Of a DNA stretch of 13,967 bases, positions 4,693 to 13,967 are shown one piece after another. Under the pieces are notes generated by a model that was not told the DNA's origin, made no database searches, and saw only the letters and a program-made list of their open reading frames with translations. Source of the stretch: an uncultured Spirochaetota bacterium (GTDB lineage: Bacteria; Spirochaetota; Spirochaetia; SZUA-6; Fen-1364). Where the stretch lies: NCBI GenBank assembly GCA_963745235.1, contig CAVUXE010000005.1:1-13967 (forward strand), written 5' to 3'. The translations under genes and the position numbers were made by a program. Within the stretch, counting starts at the first letter, position 1, and every line of letters starts with the position of its first letter.

Positions 4693-5019
4693 TCAGTGCC
4701 TCAAGAATCTCCTTAAGTCAGGTGGATACTTCTTGATTTCAATAAAGCGCTCCCTTGACACATAGTAGATTGTCAGGTAGCCCATACTGGCGAGTTGCTT
4801 GAGTACCTTTCTTTGTTTGTAATCGTTTATTCGCGTCTCGCTCAGTACGTCCTGAATTGTCAATCGAAATCTTTTGTTGCCACTCTGTTTGCTCTTCTTC
4901 AAGAGATAGCCAAAAAATAGTGCCTTTTCGAGTCCCCATTTTCTTACAAGAGAATCAGGAACAGGAAAGCTGTGGGCGGGGTCCCTAAGCGAAGCAATCA
5001 CACTCTCTTCGTCTGTCAT
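4693..5019 (-). CDS. winged-helix DNA-binding protein, similar to phage/plasmid replication-initiator N-terminal wHTH
   Basis: 'LVRKWGLEKALFFGYL...TIQDVLSETRINDYKQRKVLKQLASMGYL' fits a wHTH pattern. The start overlaps the upstream stop (ATGA, 5016-5019), implying translational coupling. Confidence 0.7.
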   Translation of the reverse strand: MTDEESVIASLRDPAHSFPVPDSLVRKWGLEKALFFGYLLKKSKQSGNKRFRLTIQDVLSETRINDYKQRKVLKQLASMGYLTIYYVSRERFIEIKKYPPDLRRFLRH

Positions 5020-6632
5020 ACTTTCCCCCCTTGAAGTTCCATTATTCTATCAGTCTCGTAATAGATGCAAGTTCCAGGCGCATAGGTGACTCCTGGCTTC
5101 AATTCTATCGCTTTCAGAAGACCTGTCTGCTCCAAAAAGGATTTGATTTCAGGAAACGATTTGCTCTTATGGTGCTTTCCCAGGAACTTGATAAGGGAGA
5201 GCGGAAGCGGTAGTCCATCACGCTCGTTCATGAATACTATGGGAAATACCATCGGCAGCTTGAGCTTAGGATCGTTGGTCCAACGAAGTCTCCATTCCTC
5301 AGTCCTTGCTTCCTCATAGCGGATTAGAAACAGCACAAACTGCCCGATCCTTTGGCAATACCTCTCCTGGATAAGATTCTCGTTCTTGAATCCACCCTTG
5401 CTTACGTTGCGTCGATTTGATAGGAACGGTATGAGGCGATCAGATATTTTCTGCCGCAACACATGATCGAGAGTTTCAGATAGCTCTGTGGTTTTGGAAT
5501 ATCGTTCAACCCTGTCAAGAACGTCTTCATAGTTCATGTCGCCAAAGACTTTCCTGCTGTCACTGCGTTCGAAATGATTCTGACCCCATTCGTAGAATGA
5601 CTTGTACTCTGTCTTCCCACGCGCCCCATGGTCGTGTGCCTCACAGATTTCTATAAAGTCCTGCAACGGAAGGCCGTATCGTATGCAGTAGCTGAGGATT
5701 GAGGTCTGTACCTCTTTCCTTTCACCAGCCCCATAGTCAAGCTTGGGATTGTCCAGCAGCTTGTGCTTTATGTTGGTCTGCGCTAATCGCTTCTTTCGTG
5801 GACCGAACTTCTTCTTATACTGCTTGTGATCAAGGTCCATTTCAAGCGAAGGATCGAGATAAGAGAATCTGTCATAGTTCTTCCACAGCGTCAGAAGCTC
5901 ATCGAATGCCATGGTTCTGATCAAGGATGGCTTCTTAATCGAATAGATTCCGTAGACTGAATACTTTCGACTCATTGGCAATCGGATGTGGCCTGTGGAG
6001 CGGACAGCTTCGATTACAAAACCTTTTCTTTTGAACTGGTCCTCAAGGTTCTGCAAAACGGGGTCGGTTGCTGCTCTATCAAAGTGGAAGTACAGGTGGT
6101 AGCCCTTTGACCATGGGTTGTATTCGACGTATTTGACTTCTCCGAACCTTGCGACAAGCTCATGAACGATAACCTTCGTGTCCTTGTTTGATCGCCCATC
6201 AATGTCGATGCAGACGATCCGCTGTGCTTTGACTTGAAGACTGCCCCATTTGATGTATTCGTATCTCCTGTTGAGACTGAAGACCCGTTCGTGAGTGAAG
6301 TGGGAGTTCCTGATGAATGCACGAGCCGTGAAGAGGCTGTAGTTGTCACCGATCTGTTTGTTGGCGTAGACAATCTGATCTGGTCGATTCTTCTCAAGTT
6401 GTGCCCCAGGATCGACACGCTCAAAGTAGAACTCCCTCTCAAGGTAGAATCCGAGAGCTTCAAAGAGAGCGTCCAGCCTTTTGTAGTCTATGTAGGAGTC
6501 TTTGCGTTGACTGCGGAAGCGGACTCGGCCTTGTGAGTCAATCTTGGAGATACCTTTCCCAGGACGACCTTTGGAAGAACCATCCTTTTGAATCGTGGAA
6601 ACCTTCCTGACATCGGATTCAACGGAAGCCAT
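5016..6632 (-). CDS. archaeo-eukaryotic primase superfamily (Prim-Pol/Rep-like) protein
   Basis: AEP-type motifs: hhhDhD 'IVCIDIDG', 'SKGYHLYFHF', 'HIRLP'. Then a PriCT-like helical stretch (GAGERKEVQTSILSYCIRYGL) and a possible C-terminal wHTH. GAGGAA RBS upstream. Confidence 0.7.
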   Translation of the reverse strand: MASVESDVRKVSTIQKDGSSKGRPGKGISKIDSQGRVRFRSQRKDSYIDYKRLDALFEALGFYLEREFYFERVDPGAQLEKNRPDQIVYANKQIGDNYSLFTARAFIRNSHFTHERVFSLNRRYEYIKWGSLQVKAQRIVCIDIDGRSNKDTKVIVHELVARFGEVKYVEYNPWSKGYHLYFHFDRAATDPVLQNLEDQFKRKGFVIEAVRSTGHIRLPMSRKYSVYGIYSIKKPSLIRTMAFDELLTLWKNYDRFSYLDPSLEMDLDHKQYKKKFGPRKKRLAQTNIKHKLLDNPKLDYGAGERKEVQTSILSYCIRYGLPLQDFIEICEAHDHGARGKTEYKSFYEWGQNHFERSDSRKVFGDMNYEDVLDRVERYSKTTELSETLDHVLRQKISDRLIPFLSNRRNVSKGGFKNENLIQERYCQRIGQFVLFLIRYEEARTEEWRLRWTNDPKLKLPMVFPIVFMNERDGLPLPLSLIKFLGKHHKSKSFPEIKSFLEQTGLLKAIELKPGVTYAPGTCIYYETDRIMELQGGKV

Positions 6633-7087: not shown

Positions 7088-8387
7088 CTATTCGTTAAGT
7101 ATGGTGGTCGACACATCCGCGTGTCCGAGCAACTCCTGAATGGTCCGTATGTCGTACCCGCGTTCAATCAAGTGCGTCGCGAAGCTGTGCCGCAGCGTGT
7201 GAATGCTTGCGTGTTTCGGGATGCCCGCCGCGCGCAACGCATCCCGAAACGCCTTCTGGAGTGTCGTCGGATACACATGAAAGCGCCGAACCGTCCGCGA
7301 CATCGGATCCATAGACAGATTCCCTGACGGGAAGACCCAATACCAGCCCCACTCGCGACTTGCATTCGAGAACTTCCTGCCCAATGCGCCGGGGATGGCT
7401 ACTCCGTCCACGCCCTTCTTTTGATCCTGGTTGTAGAGGGCGTTGACTTTCAACAGGTGATGACGAATCTCCTCGGTGATCTTTTCCGGCAGGGACCGTC
7501 TCCCGGTCCTTGTTCCCCTTTCCCGCTCTGATAGTCAGGCAGTTTCTTTCGAAGTCGATGTCTTTCACGCGCAGGGTGAGACATTCTTCCAATCTCAGAC
7601 CGCCCCCATAGATCAGGCGGACCATAAGAAGATAGGTCCCCTGCATGCCAGAGAAAACTCTTGAAATCTCCTGCCTGGTGAGCACGACAGGGAGCCTCTT
7701 GGGGACCCGAGACGGCACAACCGTGGACAGGCCGTTGATCTCTATTCCCAGGATGTTGCGGTAGAGGAAAAGGATGGCATTGAACGCGAGCCTCTGGGTT
7801 GCTGCCGCGACACTCTTTTCCACGGCAAGGAAGGAAAGAAAGCTCTTCAAGTCCTGCTCCGAAAGATCGTTGCATGTCTTCGATCCAAGAAAGGACCTGA
7901 ACTGCCGCATCCAGGAAAGGTACGCCTTCTCCGTCCTGAGCGAGAGATGCTTCAGCCGCATGAGCTGCACCAACTCCTGTTCGAGGCGGCTCCAACTCGA
8001 AAACAGCCGTCTGCGCACTTGCGTGGCCCTCGCGTTCTTTGCGTCACCCCGAGGCTGGTCACCGGCCGCGGGCCCCGGGCGGAAACTGTGAGGGTCGAAT
8101 CGCTGCGCCTCGCAGCCAGCGGTCGCGCCGTACCGGATCTCGCGAGCCTTCGGATCGCCGCACCGCGCCCTGTAGTAGGAGTACAGTTGCAGAGCTCTCT
8201 GTGCCTGCTGGACCTGCCATTTCGGGTAGCTTCCAGCGAGCCAACGCAGGAAGTAGGCCAAGGACTGATTGTCGACCGTCTCCCGCTTGGTAATACTTCG
8301 GTATGTACTTGCCCAAAGGTGGTACACCTGGCGAAGAGGTTGCTCAACCCTGTTGTGCTCGGCCAGAAAGTCTGCAAACGACTGCAT
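7088..8387 (-). pseudogene. intI: integron integrase (tyrosine recombinase), frameshifted and C-terminally truncated
   Basis: 'MRLKHLSLRTEKAYLSW', 'LIYGGGLRLEE', 'GKGNKDR', the IntI-specific insertion '[26 protein letters not shown]' and '[15 protein letters not shown]'. An extra base at GGG 7492-7494 breaks [16 protein letters not shown]. Homology ends at 'VSTT' (7101); the expected MIYTH with the catalytic Tyr is absent. Confidence 0.95.
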
Positions 8388-8523
8388 AACTCACCCACCT
8401 TCTGTATTAGGCACCTGCTCCATAACAAGACGTGGGAGATTGCTGTGCTGCTTGCAGGGGGAGCAGAAACCGCTCTGGAGCCCCCGCCGCCTAACACGCC
8501 CGACCAGGGCCTTATAGACAACT

Positions 8524-8543
8524 CGCTAATATGGTTGTTACAT
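8524..8543 (+). other. attI: attI recombination site (core G/TTACAT at 8537-8543)
   Basis: CGCTAATATGGTTGTTACAT lies 150 bp upstream of the divergent intI start. Homology with cassettes 3 and 4 begins exactly at this GTT, and no attC stem precedes it. Confidence 0.85.
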
Positions 8544-9012
8544 CTCCCGAGGTCTCATCGGGGACAAAAGCGTTCGTCCCTTTTTGAAAATTGCTCTGGG
8601 AAGCGTTGGCGTCCTGAAATCCAATGGCGCGGGCTTTCTCTTTGGGGGTTACTAGTGTTTGCTGGCGCTTCAGTGGTCCGCCGAAACGGGTGGCTGCCGG
8701 AAGGGGCGGTTTGTAGATTTCATTTCGGTGAGAACCCGCACCTGGTAGGAGAAAGTGCCGCAAGGAGAGAGATCGTTGGGATGGGCGGAAAGAGGGCTGG
8801 CGGGATGATAATGGCGGGGCAAGGGTTTGGTAAGGAAGAGTTGCCAAAGGCACAAACAGCAGCCATCGGCAGGAGTCGGCGAGCAGGTGCAGTGCAAGAA
8901 GTGAGCTGCGGATATTCTGAGGCTACGCCGACCGGGGAGATGAAGGGACGGTTGATGCGGTGAAGGAGGCGGTGAGGAATCGGCCCCGCCACCGTGTCGG
9001 GGGAGATGTAAC
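8537..9012. ncRNA. candidate structured ncRNA, type A body copy 1
   Basis: No conserved reading frame across the 3 copies. Several helices are conserved, with compensatory or wobble-compatible changes (see findings). Expression is not shown. Confidence 0.5.
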
Positions 9013-9167
9013 AAGTCGTTGAAGCCGACCCCTTAACGACCGGTCTGAAAGTGAGGCACAGGAATCGTAAACGCCGCCGCGGTCTGATCCGGCGGCTTGT
9101 AGTGAGGAATGGGAAACGTAAAAGCCGTTATGGCTGGGATGATGCGGCGGGGCGGCTTAACTCTATG
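8538..9167 (+). mobile_element. integron cassette 1, ORF-less (type A, copy 1)
   Basis: Bounded by the attI GTT and attC1. GTTACATCTCCC (8537-8548) is the exact reverse complement of GGGAGATGTAAC (9001-9012). Confidence 0.9.
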
Positions 9168-9173
9168 TTACAC
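9006..9173 (+). other. attC: attC site 1 (168 bp, internally duplicated loop)
   Basis: R'' ATGTAAC, 5-nt spacer, L'' GTTGAAGC, CGACCCC ... GGGGCG, L' GCTTAAC, TCTAT, R' GTTACAC. Same architecture as the classic aadA-type attC. Confidence 0.92.
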
Positions 9174-9838
9174 GCACGCAAATTGTTCTGAGAAAGCCCC
9201 GTGGTTGGAATATTCTTTGCTGGCTTGAGATTTTGAAAATTGGGCGGAGAACGGGCCGGCAGGGATTTCCTATCAAAGAAGGCTGGTGGTGATTGCTTCA
9301 AGGCAGTTCGCCGCCGAAGGCTTGGCTGATCGAAGTGGTACTTGATGACGCAGACAAGCAGGGGCGATAGCTGAGTTACACTACGCACCGGCCCTTCGGA
9401 CCAGCACAGGTTCGCTGGAAGCAGGTGGCGATTGCTTCAAGGCAACTGGCTTGCGAAGGTTTGGTTGATCGTAACGGTATCTGAAGAGGCAACAGAGTGT
9501 GGAGATAGATGGGTTCCATACGGTCTGGTCCAAAGGGCCGGCAGGGATCGATTGCAACAAGGGAGTCCGCCGCAGAGGGTTGGCTGATTGTAGAGGTGCT
9601 TGAAGGCGCAGACAAGCAGAGGAGATAGCTGGGCTCCACCGCGAACCGGCCCGTGAAGAGAAGATTCGTAGTGCTGGCGACCTTTCCACACCATGATGCA
9701 GGAACAAGGCACCCAGCACTAGGCGTCCGTGTAACAAATCGTTGAAGCCGACCCCTTAACGGCTGCCTTATACTGAGGCACAGGTTTGGTAAGAGCCGCC
9801 GCCGCTGGGTTGATGCGGCGGGGCGGCTTAACTCTATG
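9168..9838 (+). mobile_element. integron cassette 2, ORF-less (type B, three tandem units)
   Basis: GTTACACGCACGC (9167-9179) pairs 12/13 with GCGTCCGTGTAAC (9723-9735). No credible ORF. Confidence 0.9.
9253..9652. repeat. three tandem degenerate units (9253-9394, 9398-9531, 9535-9652), candidate structured RNA array
   Basis: Shared ~103-nt core starting GATTGC at 9291, 9430 and 9550. Each unit is closed by a 7-bp inverted repeat, with 3-nt linkers between units. Confidence 0.85.
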
Positions 9839-9844
9839 TTACAT
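9729..9844 (+). other. attC: attC site 2 (116 bp)
   Basis: GTGTAAC AAATC GTTGAAGCCGACCCC ... GGGGCGGCTTAAC TCTAT GTTACAT. Confidence 0.93.
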
Positions 9845-10419
9845 CTCCCGAGGTCTCATCCGGGACAAAAGCGTTCGTCCCCTTTTGAAGATTTCTCTGG
9901 GAAGCGTTGGCGTCCTGAAATCGAACGGTGCGGGCTTTCTCTTTGGGGGCTACTACGGTTTGGCTGGCGCTTCAGTGGTACGTGCCGAAAAGGATGGCTG
10001 CCGGAAGGAGCGGTTTGTAGATTTCATTCGCTGAGAACCCGCACCTGGTAGGAGAAAGTGCTGCGAGGAGAGATATCGTTGGGATGGGCGGGAAGAGGGC
10101 TGGCGGGATGATGATGGCGGGGCAAGGGTTCGGTAAGGAAGAGTTGCCAAAGGCACAAACAGCAGCCATCGGCAGGGTCGGCGAGCAGGTGCAGTGCAGA
10201 AGTGAGTTGGGGATATTCCAGAGACTACGCCGACAGAGGAGATGAAGGGACGGTTGATGCGGTGAAGGAGGCAGTGAGGAATCGGCCCCGCCACCGTGTC
10301 GGGGGAGATGTAACAAGTCGTTGAAGCCGTCCCCTTAGCTTACGCGCGGAAAGTGGGGCCTACGTTCCGTAGGAAAGGTCGCCGCTAGGCGCAGGTCGGC
10401 GGGGCGGCTTAACTCTGTG
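9839..10419 (+). mobile_element. integron cassette 3, ORF-less (type A, copy 2)
   Basis: Body 9838-10314 is about 90% identical by eye to 8537-9012 and has the same 12-bp terminal inverted match. Confidence 0.9.
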
Positions 10420-10425
10420 TTACAT
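10308..10425 (+). other. attC: attC site 3 (118 bp, divergent loop)
   Basis: ATGTAAC AAGTC GTTGAAGCCGTCCCC ... GGGGCGGCTTAAC TCTGT GTTACAT. Confidence 0.93.
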
Positions 10426-10995
10426 CTCCCGACTCTCATCGGGGACAAAAGCGTTTGTCCCTTTTTGAAGATTGCTCTGGGAAGCGTTGGCGTCCTGAAA
10501 TCCAATGGCGCGGGCTTCTCATTGGGGGTTGCTAGTGTTTGCTGGCGCTTCAGTAGTCCGCCGAAACGGGTGGCTGCTGTAAGGGGCGGTTTGCAGATTT
10601 CATTTCACTGAGAACCCGCGCCTGGTAGGAGAAAGTGTTGAAAGGAGAGAGATCGTTGGGATGGGTGGGGAAGAGGGCTGGCGGGATGATAATGGCGGGG
10701 CATGGGTTTGGTAAGGAAGAGTTGCCAAAGGCACAAACAACAGCCATCGGCAGGAGTCGACGAGCAGGTGCAGTGCAGAAGTGACCTGCGGATATTCTAA
10801 GGCTACGCCGACCGGGGAGATGAAGGGACGGTTGATGCGGTGAAGGAGGCGGTGAGGAATCGGCCCCGCCACCGTGTCGGGGGAGATGTAACAAGTCGTT
10901 GAAGCCGACCCCTTAACGACCGGCTGAAAGTGAGGCACAGGAATCGTAAACGCCGCCGCGGCTGATCTGATGCGGCGGGGCGGCTTAACTCTGTG
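10420..10995 (+). mobile_element. integron cassette 4, ORF-less (type A, copy 3)
   Basis: Body 10419-10892 is roughly 94% identical by eye to copy 1. Confidence 0.9.
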
Positions 10996-11001
10996 TTATG
11001 T
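10886..11001 (+). other. attC: attC site 4 (116 bp)
   Basis: ATGTAAC AAGTC GTTGAAGCCGACCCC ... GGGGCGGCTTAAC TCTGT GTTATGT. Confidence 0.93.
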
Positions 11002-11030
11002 GGCGCAGTCTGGGCTATCATTCAATGGCA

Positions 11031-11504
11031 ATGGTTCGAAGTTCAGTGTTGAAACTATCAATCATCATCGCAATACTCATCCTAATTTCATGCGCGTCGA
11101 AACCAAGCCCCAATTTAGCTGTAAGCGTGGCCATGGCTTCCGCGATACGGGCCGTCGAAAAGTCTGAACAGGCACAATTCAGCCCCGAACAGGAATATTT
11201 CTTAGGCAGAGCCGTCAGCGCTGGAATTCTGTCGAGATATAGAGTTTATGCAAATGACGCTGCAACTCAATACATAAGTCTCATCGGCAAGGCCTTGGCT
11301 ATCCACTGTGCGCTACCGGAGACATTTACCGGATATCATTTCCTCATTCTTGATTCAGCAGAATTGAACGGCTTTGCCGCTCCAGGGGGCTTCGTCTTTA
11401 TAACTCGTGGTTTGCTACTTTCCATCAAAAGCGAGGATATGATAGCTGGAGCCCTTGCATATTCAATAAGTCATGTCGTTATGCATTCAGGTGTTTCAAC
11501 AATC
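11031..11504 (+). pseudogene. cassette 5: M48-family peptidase-like lipoprotein, interrupted by IS66
   Basis: Signal peptide with lipobox-like 'ILILISC'; 'FSPEQEYFLGR' and 'YHFLILDSAELNGFAAPGGFVFITRGLL...SEDMIAGALA' are M48/BepA-like. Start may be 10998, 11025 or 11031. Residues after 11504 are read from IS DNA. Confidence 0.85.
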
Positions 11505-11565
11505 GTATCTATTCAGCTAAAATACCGGACAAATGTTAGGGTATTCCGGAAATTGTGAAAGCGTG

Positions 11566-13167
11566 GTAACTGTTCAGCTGGTCTGAAGGCAGTCAGTCAG
11601 GGTTAGGTCTTTTTCAAACGCATTCATGAGAGCGTCAATAACCGATAGGCCCTGCTTTCTGATCGTTGAGATATAACTTCGTATCCGACAGAATGAGAGC
11701 GCTCCCCCATTGCTTCGGAATGCCCCGGATACTTTCTGCTGGACCCTCATCATTCTTATATCTCGTTCTGCCAAATTATTGTCGAAGTCAACTCTGAAAT
11801 CGGTCATGTATCGCAGGGTCTCCTCGCGTAGTCGTTCAAGTCTTTCCAACAGATTGCGTGCTTTGCTGCGCTTGATCCGGCCCCGTTTTCCGGGGCTGTC
11901 TGCCCGATGAGGCGATGGGTTGGCTTTCATACCACTTGCGATGATCGCTTTGTAGCGGCTCTCATATTTGCGAATGTCGCAGAGGGGTAGTTTCTTCTTC
12001 CCTGTGCGTTTTGCCTGCTCCACAGTTTGCTTGCTCTCCAGAAGAAGGCCGATCATTTGTTGCGCCCACACTTGGCCACCCGGTTCATAGACCGCCGTGA
12101 GTTCTCGAATGTGATGTGCGTTGCACAGCGAATGCGAGCACCTATATTTCATGTAGGGTTTCCAATTATCATGAACCGCGTTGCCTTTCAGCCGCGGCAG
12201 AATCCCAATCTGATCTGTGGCAGCGCTACCACGCCTCTGATGAGGATAGTAGTAGGTGAACTCCTGAGTGCCCGCCCCGTGCAGCCAGTGCAGTTTGCCG
12301 TTGATGCTCAAGCCGGTCTCATCAAAGTGCACCACTTTCGCCTGAATCAGTTTCTCCTTGATCTGCTCCACAACACCCTGGACTCGTTGCGCACACCGCC
12401 GATCGATACTGGCCAGCGTGCCAACGCTGAGGGGAATGGCGAACAGATCAGCGAAGGCTTGGGCGGCTCGATCGTAGGAAAGAAATCCATAGTTTTTTAG
12501 ATACACTGCAAATGCCTTCAGCCGTGGACCGTACTGTGCTTTGTGACTTACCCCGAGTGGGAACACCGCTACCGAAAGCTCGTGGCAGTGGGGGCAGCGC
12601 TTGATCTGGGCACGGTGTTCGGTCACATCCACGGCGATGGGCGGAATATCGAAGACTTGTCGTGACTCATACCCTCGCGGCTTTTGCTGTTGCAGCGACT
12701 TGCCGCATCCCTGGCACACTTTGACTTCATGAATCATCACCTGCTGCGGGTGTTCGACCATGGACAACGTTGTTCCCTCGTGCCCTTGCTGACCGCCAGG
12801 TTTTTTCCCGCTGGATTCTCGTCTCGTATGAATCCGTCGATGCAAGCCATCACTGGAGGGAGGCTTATCGCTGTTATGACTGTCCTTGCTGTTCTTCTCC
12901 TCCAGCGCTTTGATTCTTTGCGTTAACCTCTTGATCTGGTCTACCACCTGGTCGATGGTGTTGTCGTGCTGATCCTGTAGATACTCGATGAGAGAAACGA
13001 TAGCCTCAGGGCCTGCCTTGTATGCATTCAGAATTTGCTCGCGAGGGATTCGCGGCAGATGATAGTCCTTTTCCTCTCCCATGCAACTGAGCGTGACGGA
13101 CTTTTTGAGTTTCCGGAATACTTAACATCCGTCCGGTATTTCACCTCCCGGGGAGCTGAACAGTTAC
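11566..13167 (-). mobile_element. IS66-family element B (single-ORF, ISBst12-like organisation), complete, 1602 bp
   Basis: Perfect 14-bp TIRs GTAACTGTTCAGCT (11566-11579 and 13154-13167); 8-bp target duplication AAAGCGTG at 11558-11565 and 13168-13175. Confidence 0.96.
11574..13082 (-). CDS. IS66 family transposase
   Basis: 'NSKDSHNSDKPPSSD', 'KKPGGQQGHEG', CxxC...CxxC zinc finger, 'VVHFDETG', 'CNAHHIREL', 'FDNNLAERDIR' and 'KVSGAFRS' motifs; intact 502 aa. Confidence 0.96.
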   Translation of the reverse strand: MGEEKDYHLPRIPREQILNAYKAGPEAIVSLIEYLQDQHDNTIDQVVDQIKRLTQRIKALEEKNSKDSHNSDKPPSSDGLHRRIHTRRESSGKKPGGQQGHEGTTLSMVEHPQQVMIHEVKVCQGCGKSLQQQKPRGYESRQVFDIPPIAVDVTEHRAQIKRCPHCHELSVAVFPLGVSHKAQYGPRLKAFAVYLKNYGFLSYDRAAQAFADLFAIPLSVGTLASIDRRCAQRVQGVVEQIKEKLIQAKVVHFDETGLSINGKLHWLHGAGTQEFTYYYPHQRRGSAATDQIGILPRLKGNAVHDNWKPYMKYRCSHSLCNAHHIRELTAVYEPGGQVWAQQMIGLLLESKQTVEQAKRTGKKKLPLCDIRKYESRYKAIIASGMKANPSPHRADSPGKRGRIKRSKARNLLERLERLREETLRYMTDFRVDFDNNLAERDIRMMRVQQKVSGAFRSNGGALSFCRIRSYISTIRKQGLSVIDALMNAFEKDLTLTDCLQTS

Positions 13168-13189
13168 AAAGCGTGAAATAATCTCTCTC

Positions 13190-13967
13190 ATGGGAGGGGG
13201 CCATAAGAAATTCTCGCGCATTGGGCGCTAGCAAATTCTCAACGCTTATCGGGCTGGGCCTGATGCCATCGTCTCGTTGATCGACTATCTGCAAGAGACG
13301 CTTTTGGGAATCATCGAAGAACACGAAGCACGGATCGAAGAGCTTGAAGCGAAGCTCAACAAGGACAGCCACAACAGCGACAAGCCGCCTTCCACAGATG
13401 GACCGAAGCGAAGGTTCACCGCAAAGAATCGGGAGCGCAGTGACAAGAAACCTGGCGGTCAGGAGGGACACGAGGGCACGACGCTGCGGATGGTAAGCGA
13501 TCCAGCCCAGGTGGCAGTTCATGAGGTCAAACGCTGTGGGCGTTGCGGCAGATCGTTGAAGGATGTGAAGCCACGAGGCTACCTCCCACGGCAGGTTTTC
13601 GATATCCCTCGCATTACTGTGGCGGTCACCGAGCATCGAGCGCAGATCAAACGCTGCCCTCACTGTGGAGAGCTTTCCCGGGGAGAGTTCCCTGAGGGGG
13701 TGACTCACACGACCCAGTATGGAACGCGCCTGAGAGCCTTTGCGGTGTACCTGAAGAACTATGGATTTCTCTCCTATCAACGGACCGCCGAAGCGTTGTC
13801 AGACTTGTTCGCCATTGCTGTGAGCGCGGGGACCCTCGCCAGCACAGATGGTCGCTGTGCCCAACGTCTGGAAAGGGTGGTGGAACAGATCAGAGAGAAG
13901 CTTGTTCGGGCGCCGGTGGTGCATTTCGATGAAACAGGACTGAGCATCAACGGGAAGTTACACTGGC
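13190..13967 (+). pseudogene. IS66 family transposase of element A, premature TAG at codon 14, 3'-partial
   Basis: MGGGHKKFSRIGR*QILNAYRAGPDAIVSLIDYLQ...NKDSHNSDKPPSTD...VVHFDETGLSINGKLHW. TAG at 13229-13231 aligns with Glu in the element B paralog. Open to the window end. Confidence 0.9.

Follow-up and report, generated by a model that had tools for sequence, protein, structure and literature searches.

A gene-less integron cassette of an uncultured Spirochaetota bacterium carries three tandem units with conserved self-pairing and may encode a structured RNA

Results

Three self-pairing units in a gene-less integron cassette

The window analyzed here is the entire 13,967-bp contig CAVUXE010000005.1 from a 5.85-Mb metagenome-assembled genome (MAG; GCA_963745235.1) of an uncultured Spirochaetota bacterium, estimated to be 85.7% complete with 5.87% contamination. 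Over a 400-aa segment, its RpoB shares 97-98% identity with two uncultured Spirochaetia/Spirochaetota MAGs. One of the four integron cassettes on this contig, here termed cassette 2 (positions ~9171-9843), was found to carry a tandem array of three related units, each of which has ends complementary to one another. Cassette 2 falls in the class of gene-less integron cassettes, as it has attC borders beside an integrase gene (intI), occurs in varied contexts and has no credible open reading frame (ORF); this setting weighs most in interpreting the array. Our reading, drawn from sequence comparison, is that it may carry a ~400-nucleotide (nt) plus-strand non-coding RNA of three diverged modules, to which we assign a probability of about 0.5. 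This structured-RNA reading is favored because (i) the closing helix and a hairpin of the units covary; (ii) no coding signal was detected; (iii) the conserved pairing and an excess of G mark the plus strand; and (iv) the cassette is ORF-less. The underlying observation that the units are paired and repeated was confirmed as real and non-random. Cassette 2 is composed of an 81-nt leader, the 400-nt array, a tail hairpin and an attC site, as follows:

9172 to 9252, plus strand: leader of cassette 2, not repeated and without similarity to the units
9253 to 9394, plus strand: unit 1, 142 nt, with closing helix 9253-9259/9388-9394 and hairpin 9341-9344/9355-9358
9395 to 9397, plus strand: linker 1, TTC (CTT in the orthologue)
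9398 to 9531, plus strand: unit 2, 134 nt, with closing helix 9398-9404/9525-9531 and hairpin 9480-9483/9493-9496, two compensatory pairs in each
9532 to 9534, plus strand: linker 2, AAA
9535 to 9652, plus strand: unit 3, 118 nt, with closing helix 9535-9541/9646-9652 and hairpin 9599-9602/9613-9616
9670 to 9722, plus strand: tail hairpin, with a 9-bp stem (9670-9678/9714-9722) and no U-run after it, seen in the minimum-energy fold of the whole cassette
9731 to 9843, plus strand: attC site of cassette 2 (attC profile match, 3.1e-33)

The three units were found to be homologous and arranged head to tail, with 76% and 81% identity by the repeat finder (families D9 and D11) and a mean column identity of 79% across the three-unit alignment; the array was not reported by Tandem Repeats Finder. 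The homology starts and stops at the arms of the closing helix, and thus the phase of the repeat is not arbitrary. The alignment includes single-base indels as well as indels of 6 and ~23 nt, the latter two located just 3′ of the 5′ arm, which agrees with an earlier reading of this DNA made from the letters alone (the sequence-only reading) in placing the most variable segment there. The arm sequences, their coordinates and the 3-nt linkers TTC and AAA given by that reading also proved correct when checked against the sequence.

Covariation in the closing helix and an internal hairpin

The arms of units 1 and 3 (GGGCCGG/CCGGCCC) and of unit 2 (GGACCAG/CTGGTCC) were each found to form a perfect 7-bp helix. 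As the sequence-only reading had pointed out, unit 2 carries a double compensatory change, with A in place of G at arm positions 3 and 6 and T in place of C at the partner positions, such that Watson-Crick pairing is retained. When the columns of the three-unit alignment were shuffled, an all-Watson-Crick helix of at least 5 bp that is kept in all units with at least two compensatory pairs was obtained in 0 of 2000 shuffles. Under strict pairing, only two helices of at least 4 bp persist across the three units, namely the closing helix and a hairpin at alignment columns 89-92/103-106. The hairpin reads CUUG/CAAG in units 1 and 3 and UCUG/CAGA in unit 2, and it likewise has two compensatory pairs; a helix of this kind (at least 4 bp, Watson-Crick, two compensatory pairs) was found in 1 of 1000 shuffles. 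Thus, the complementarity of the unit ends and of the hairpin is kept through compensatory changes.

Other inner pairings proposed by the sequence-only reading fared less well. The exchange of TCAAG/CTTGA for CTTCA/TGAAG, which had been listed as a recurring pairing, is a two-column register shift and not a compensatory change, and it is absent from the set of helices whose columns are shared by all three units. The upstream CAAG is unchanged in unit 2, and therefore covariation favors the hairpin as the partner for the shared CUUG. The exchange of CAGT/GCTG for CAAC/GTTG was upheld in that it includes one compensatory pair, but it leaves a G-G mismatch at one position in unit 3. In a four-helix model, in which the closing helix and the small hairpin are accompanied by an irregular hairpin at columns 29-60 and a hairpin at columns 63-80, 97.8% of cells are paired and seven pairs have changed on both sides, compared with 85.8% of cells paired in a model built from the pairings of the sequence-only reading; both percentages are flattering because each model was built on the very sequences on which it is scored.

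The minimum-energy fold of the whole cassette pairs the 3′ arm of unit 1 plus UU with AA plus the 5′ arm of unit 3, a nested fold that extends the unit 2 closing helix to 16 pairs with one mismatch. In the orthologue, in which linker 1 is CTT instead of TTC, the mismatch moves and two of the three linker pairs are kept. Thus, the modules may be nested instead of side by side in such a fold, and the two topologies are inseparable because units 1 and 3 have the same arm sequences. The possibility that the junctions form palindromes (3′ arm, linker and next 5′ arm acting as a hairpin or protein site) was considered and rejected, as the changes in unit 2 weaken both palindromes and keep the within-unit pairing.

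Strand asymmetry of pairing and composition

When G·U pairs were allowed, 11 conserved helices of at least 4 bp were detected on the plus strand compared with 3.4 ± 2.4 in the shuffles (7 of 500 reached 11), and six of these helices have a compensatory pair (0 of 500 shuffles). The minus strand, treated in the same way, had only two helices, both Watson-Crick, compared with 1.5 expected (190 of 500 shuffles). The GC skew of the cassette 2 body was +0.20 to +0.21, and that of the second gene-less type of cassette in this genome was +0.31 to +0.32, while nine other cassettes ranged from -0.05 to +0.10. The restriction of the additional pairing to the plus strand and the excess of G on it thus fit an RNA read from this strand. 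All coding cassettes of a sister array on contig C9 of the same MAG also run on the plus strand.

Transcription of the array is weakly hinted at by a single 163-nt contig from a peat RNA library that covers positions 9415-9577 and spans the junction of units 2 and 3. The sequence-only reading had suggested a polycistronic structured RNA, perhaps processed to monomers. A structured RNA of three self-closing modules best fits the present data, but the polycistronic organization and the processing were not supported, as the only piece from an RNA library crosses a unit junction and the linkers are not conserved (linker 1 is TTC in the window and CTT in the orthologue).

The array does not encode a conserved peptide

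Since the units differ in length (142, 134 and 118 nt) through single-base, 6-nt and ~23-nt indels, no reading frame is common to all of them. Similar short peptides can be translated from the plus strand of the units, and minus-strand ORFs of 86-118 amino acids (aa) are also present, which together might suggest tandem small-peptide genes or a decayed repeat-protein gene. However, the similar peptides fall out of frame between units through 1-nt indels, and the long minus-strand frames are expected because the minus strand is poor in purines. Substitutions relative to the orthologue were distributed over the three codon phases as 13/15/12 in the 495 nt of the cassette compared, with no codon periodicity, compared with 36/18/44 in intI. 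The 118-aa ORF, the longest on the minus strand, had no relative in the protein collection searched, and no Pfam family was assigned at E ≤ 1 to any of the five ORFs inside cassette 2 (eight ORFs were searched in all). A coding origin of the repeat is therefore barely conceivable, and on these sequence grounds coding is excluded for practical purposes.

Copies, orthologue and distribution of the array

The array was found three times in the genome: in the window, at C9:237974-238373 and at C9:244842-245241. On contig C9, cassette 2 sits in first place behind a copy of the integrase and attI that is 99.7% identical, and a metagenome contig (L029) carries a 91% orthologue of the integrase, attI and cassette 2, with the cassette again in first place. 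Of the four known contexts of cassette 2, two (C9 and L029) have attI just before it; in the window its upstream neighbor is a gene-less cassette, and at the second C9 copy it is a VapBC cassette. The cassette that comes after it is different each time, and this variety of array contexts marks cassette 2 as mobile. Near-identical pieces were also present in public sequencing runs, with 20 rows among the matches listed from 11 studies labeled as soil, peat, wetland, sediment or bioreactor; the contigs compared here came from four of these runs, each with a share of at least 0.2 save the RNA run X16 (share 0.16).

Comparison with L029 revealed 40 substitutions and no indel over 495 nt. None of the 42 arm positions had changed, compared with 29 of 394 unit positions. 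When the four-helix model was applied, 7 of 152 paired positions had changed (four of which keep the pair) compared with 22 of 242 unpaired positions, a difference that is not significant (Fisher p 0.11). In the leader, 9 of 87 positions (9166-9252) differed, or 10.3%.

The search for more distant relatives was negative. BLAST of the array in 60 relatives gave nothing beyond near-identical copies. A covariance model of the unit, as the sequence-only reading had proposed to build, likewise returned the near-identical copies, but no more distant unit was detected in 24 genomes of the family, 91 of the order and 150 sampled from the phylum, nor in 80 integron loci found via their integrase. Of two degenerate patterns used to scan the genome contigs, one gave 0 loci and the other 30 loci, none of which was confirmed (best 14.5 bits); a degenerate pattern gave 0 loci in viral contigs and eight loci in metagenome contigs, of which only L029 was real. 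The comparison with phages that had also been proposed, here by blastn and extended to plasmids, gave no match.

Integron platform and cassette borders

The features that frame cassette 2 in the window are:

7164 to 8387, minus strand: intI, integron-type tyrosine recombinase of 407 aa (Pfam and NCBIfam models)
9008 to 9171, plus strand: attC site closing the upstream cassette (attC profile matches 9008-9095 and 9092-9171)

The intI product matched Phage_int_SAM_4 (5.4e-23) and Phage_integrase (9.7e-10) of Pfam, and its best NCBIfam model was the integron integrase TIGR02249 (1e-53, 182.7 bits), a match that falls short of the curated cut-off of 265 bits and is confined to positions 4-164 of the 315-position model. 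About 137 residues of the ORF precede the first domain match and the generic models end near residue 300, while residues 1-407 are matched at 53-58% by two Spirochaetota MAGs, which suggests a lineage-specific form of the integron integrase. To the right of intI, the four cassettes are separated by a homogeneous repeat of ~113 nt (repeat-finder families D4 and D6). As single-stranded DNA this repeat folds into an imperfect hairpin with a 7-bp terminal stem, with z-scores for the cassette 2 copy of -4.5 (bottom strand) and -3.8 (top strand), and it was therefore identified as the attC site. An attC profile gave 36 matches on 13 contigs of the genome, all belonging to one homogeneous family. Metagenome contigs part from the window sequence exactly after 9170 and after 9841, and the recombination points were therefore placed there, with the point at ~9170 forming the left border of cassette 2.

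The attC site that closes the upstream cassette is 164 nt long compared with the usual ~113 nt, is matched by the profile as two overlapping pieces and is represented in metagenome contigs that omit 57-110 nt within it (e.g., 9032-9140); it looks like a composite or partly duplicated attC. The integrase/attI platform is present twice in the assembly (window 7100-8542 and C9:236451-237892), 99.7% identical and with different first cassettes, which may reflect either two strain variants binned together or a duplicated platform. Near the 3′ end of intI, between this gene and a 538-aa ORF with no family assigned (5016-6632, minus strand), a 47-nt direct repeat (6719-6765/6963-7009) is found with its copies 94% alike and 244 nt apart. 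The region 3′ of the last attC (10998-13966) includes a 186-aa ORF with a partial Peptidase_M48 match, followed by two IS66-family transposase genes, the first at 11574-13082 (minus strand) and the second at 13277-13966 (plus strand) running off the contig end. Thus, the array on the window contig appears to have been cut short by insertion sequences.

A second gene-less cassette family and the sister array

A second family of gene-less cassettes was found in four copies, three in the window (8543-9007, 9844-10309 and 10425-10887) and one at C9:241370-241835, and only in this genome among the 92 genomes of the order searched. The copies are 92-95% alike, with 11 gap columns that are nearly all single-base and with stops in all six frames. 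In every copy a long stem closes a module of ~116 nt (window ~8627-8742); at one pair of this stem, one copy has U-A, another C-G and the remaining two C·A. In this family (window 10508-10621 and 8675-8696), the cassette 2 unit model gave a weak full-length match, with a score of 14.2 bits and E 0.09 over 29 kb. Of 36 positions compared with that stretch, 29 are the same in unit 3 (z 4.5 compared with shuffles); across all unit-by-copy comparisons, seven of nine were not significant, and only unit 3 against two of the copies was significant, with z 3.4 and 4.5. The two RNA-like cassette families may share a motif or ancestor. The only promoter-like site in cassette 2 lies within unit 3 at 9615-9587 of the minus strand and is a sigma-70-like pattern with 9 of 12 matches; similar minus-strand patterns were found in two copies of the second family (8833-8805 and 10714-10686).

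The sister array (C9:236001-251401) runs entirely on the plus strand and includes HigB-like/HTH, RHH/PIN (VapBC-like) and Abi_C cassettes. Also present in this array are split leucine carboxyl methyltransferase ORFs, an ORF with an RQC domain and an IS630-like transposase pair.

Discussion

Weighing of the structured-RNA reading

Several observations weigh against the interpretation of cassette 2 as a structured RNA. Fold energies are unremarkable: the single-unit z-scores for the plus strand were -1.78, -1.56 and +0.30, the whole-cassette z-score was -1.12 on the plus strand compared with -2.08 on the minus strand, and shuffles of the consensus fold gave plus-strand values of -2.0 and -1.2 against minus-strand values of -1.7 and -2.8. 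Thermodynamics thus neither proves a structure nor picks a strand. The pairing is also not intact everywhere, as one metagenome contig as well as the second C9 copy has a broken unit 1 closing helix, and the unit 3 hairpin is broken in L029. The predicted consensus structure shifts with the set of sequences used, and several inner helices compete for the same bases. In addition, the covariation has a thin comparative base of effectively three independent sequences, the paralogous units with close copies of each, as no distant homologue was found. The divergence of the units from L029 (6.3-8.5%) is near that of intI (98 of 1224 positions) and somewhat below the 10.3% of the leader. A consensus scan detected no plus-strand promoter- or terminator-like site in cassette 2, and the RNA-library contig may be DNA carry-over and carries no strand information.

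Some of these points would be expected if the array were an evolutionary leftover, in which a once-functional module was triplicated by unequal recombination and is now drifting, kept at little cost in the array. A divergence close to that of the neighboring sequence, the break of each good helix in one copy, the very narrow distribution and the weak fold z-scores are all consistent with this scenario. However, two compensatory pairs in each of two helices would be very unlikely to arise without past selection for pairing, and decay is also hard to reconcile with the absence of indels in 495 nt and of any change in 42 arm positions relative to L029, or with the presence of three copies in one genome, two of which directly or nearly adjoin attI. 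We therefore regard a relic as unlikely. A promoter or regulatory role, in which the DNA would supply a promoter or signal to downstream cassettes and the repeat would be incidental, is compatible with the RNA reading. According to PMC11014356 and PMC6557892, most gene-less cassettes tested show sense-strand promoter activity, and in the former such promoters are described as not predictable in silico. Taken as the explanation of the array this role is distinctly unlikely, as the sole promoter-like site in cassette 2 is on the minus strand (9615-9587), a promoter accounts neither for complementarity kept 110-130 nt apart nor for the G excess, and two of the four contexts are right after attI, where a promoter is least needed.

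A structure formed in single-stranded DNA, such as an unusual recombination or priming site in cassette excision or insertion, was also weighed. The two best helices are purely Watson-Crick and could form in either strand of DNA, folded single strands are used in integron recombination, and Weinberg et al. 2017 (PMC5737381) point out that single-stranded DNA and RNA motifs are not separable by comparison alone. Nonetheless, this alternative is very unlikely, since the attC box consensus is missing from the arms, no unit forms a long hairpin, the unit folds with DNA parameters gave z-scores of -1.6 to +0.4 compared with -4.5 for a true attC, the extra conserved pairing requires G·U on one strand only, and the real attC sites form the one homogeneous family already described (36 matches on 13 contigs). 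Finally, the array could be a true type III antitoxin, from which a toxin endoribonuclease encoded elsewhere cuts monomers that inhibit the toxin. The tandem array of structured units and the HigB-like/HTH, VapBC and Abi_C cassettes of the integron are in keeping with this idea, but units of 118-142 nt that are 76-81% alike are unlike the short, near-identical repeats of that family, cassette 2 has no ORF, the linkers are not conserved and the RNA-library contig spans a junction. No match to the ToxN family (PF13958) was found in this 85.7%-complete genome, by a search whose control was also silent. On balance, a type III antitoxin is highly improbable.

Comparison with known systems

The repeats of type III antitoxins are about 35-45 nt long and are near-identical direct repeats. 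The arrays ToxI, CptI and TenpI resemble cassette 2 in that structured RNA units are placed head to tail on mobile DNA, here in an integron rich in toxin-antitoxin cassettes. They differ in that the units of cassette 2 are three to four times longer, diverged and marked by indels, with no downstream toxin gene, no terminator-like site and no sign of processing. Thus, the likeness that the sequence-only reading had drawn to type III arrays is only formal, failing on unit size and identity, although its remark that no toxin gene accompanies the units held for the cassette. Similarly, the glycine riboswitch and the CsrB/RsmZ sponges have several like-folded modules per transcript, each closed by a helix, with unpaired stretches as possible binding sites; however, cassette 2 has neither the regulated gene nor the expression platform of a riboswitch, and its units show no conserved GGA-loop pattern as in CsrB/RsmZ and no Rfam match. 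Another RNA for comparison, sRNA-Xcc1, is a single small RNA that is not known to form a three-module array, and no sequence or Rfam relation of it to cassette 2 was found. As cited in PMC6557892, it is a trans-acting small RNA from an ORF-less integron cassette of Xanthomonas campestris, and it provides a precedent for a non-coding RNA as the payload of such a cassette. The known roles of gene-less cassettes that are described in PMC11014356 and PMC6557892 are those of promoters in the integrons of Vibrio and of Treponema, also a spirochaete. Cassette 2 shares with these cassettes the ORF-less state within a sedentary chromosomal integron; they are defined by promoter activity, whereas cassette 2 is marked by a repeated module with kept pairing.

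Searches for known RNA families were negative. Rfam 15 gave 0 matches at the gathering score in the window, and the only matches at E ≤ 10 were sR36 (19.8 bits compared with 55, outside the array) and g2 (19.6 bits compared with 70, minus strand); a search for tRNA and tmRNA was also negative. Three further candidates were considered and rejected. The units are not attC-like sites, as their arms (GGGCCGG/CCGGCCC) are unlike the GTTAC-type attC ends and a unit is not one hairpin. A miniature inverted-repeat element does not fit, as only nine units exist, all within the three cassette copies, and the linkers differ. Neither does a tandem riboswitch, as what comes after the array is a hairpin lacking a U-run and then attC, and the downstream cassette differs per context.

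A possible mode of action

Returning to the structured-RNA reading, we infer that cassette 2 is transcribed and acts as an RNA. It would probably be transcribed within a cassette transcript that starts at the integrase/attI platform, in the same direction as all coding cassettes of the integron, and its place directly after attI in two of the four contexts would suit a cargo that has to be expressed. Each module would fold alone, with the 7-bp helix joining its ends and at least one internal hairpin (CUUG, a 9-10-nt loop and CAAG), and further G·U-containing helices would probably form in the 5′ half of the module. Invariant purine-rich stretches, such as the GAUAG block, would stay unpaired and are candidate contacts. 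Three like modules per transcript would offer a multivalent binding surface, as in sponge or antitoxin RNAs, which might sequester a protein or RNA partner in trans. Given the HigB-like/HTH, VapBC and Abi_C neighbors in the sister array, our guess is that this role could be decoy- or antitoxin-like. Release of the modules as monomers would be possible in principle but is unsupported.

Implications for integron cargo

The open full-text literature, with subscription journals and supplements outside this scope, yielded no account of structured RNAs arrayed in tandem within integron cassettes, and the narrow distribution of cassette 2 together with the thin comparative support limits present claims. 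Gene-less integron cassettes are common and have so far been explained mainly as promoters, with few known to encode RNAs. All four cassettes of the window are G-rich and lack a gene, and the array is otherwise filled with toxin-antitoxin and abortive-infection genes. We raise, as a rather unlikely and speculative extension, the idea that RNA-only cassettes form a working class of integron cargo, in which cassette 2 would be a mobile trivalent decoy or antitoxin-like RNA that ties up a toxin, defense effector or phage factor, and the second gene-less family, which has a ~36-nt stretch and a stem-closed module in common with cassette 2, would perhaps be a related or partner RNA. If the whole payload of cassette 2 is a three-module structured RNA, the cassette would provide a defined, synthesizable object of ~560 nt for testing such RNAs, and integrons would trade in RNA functions as well.

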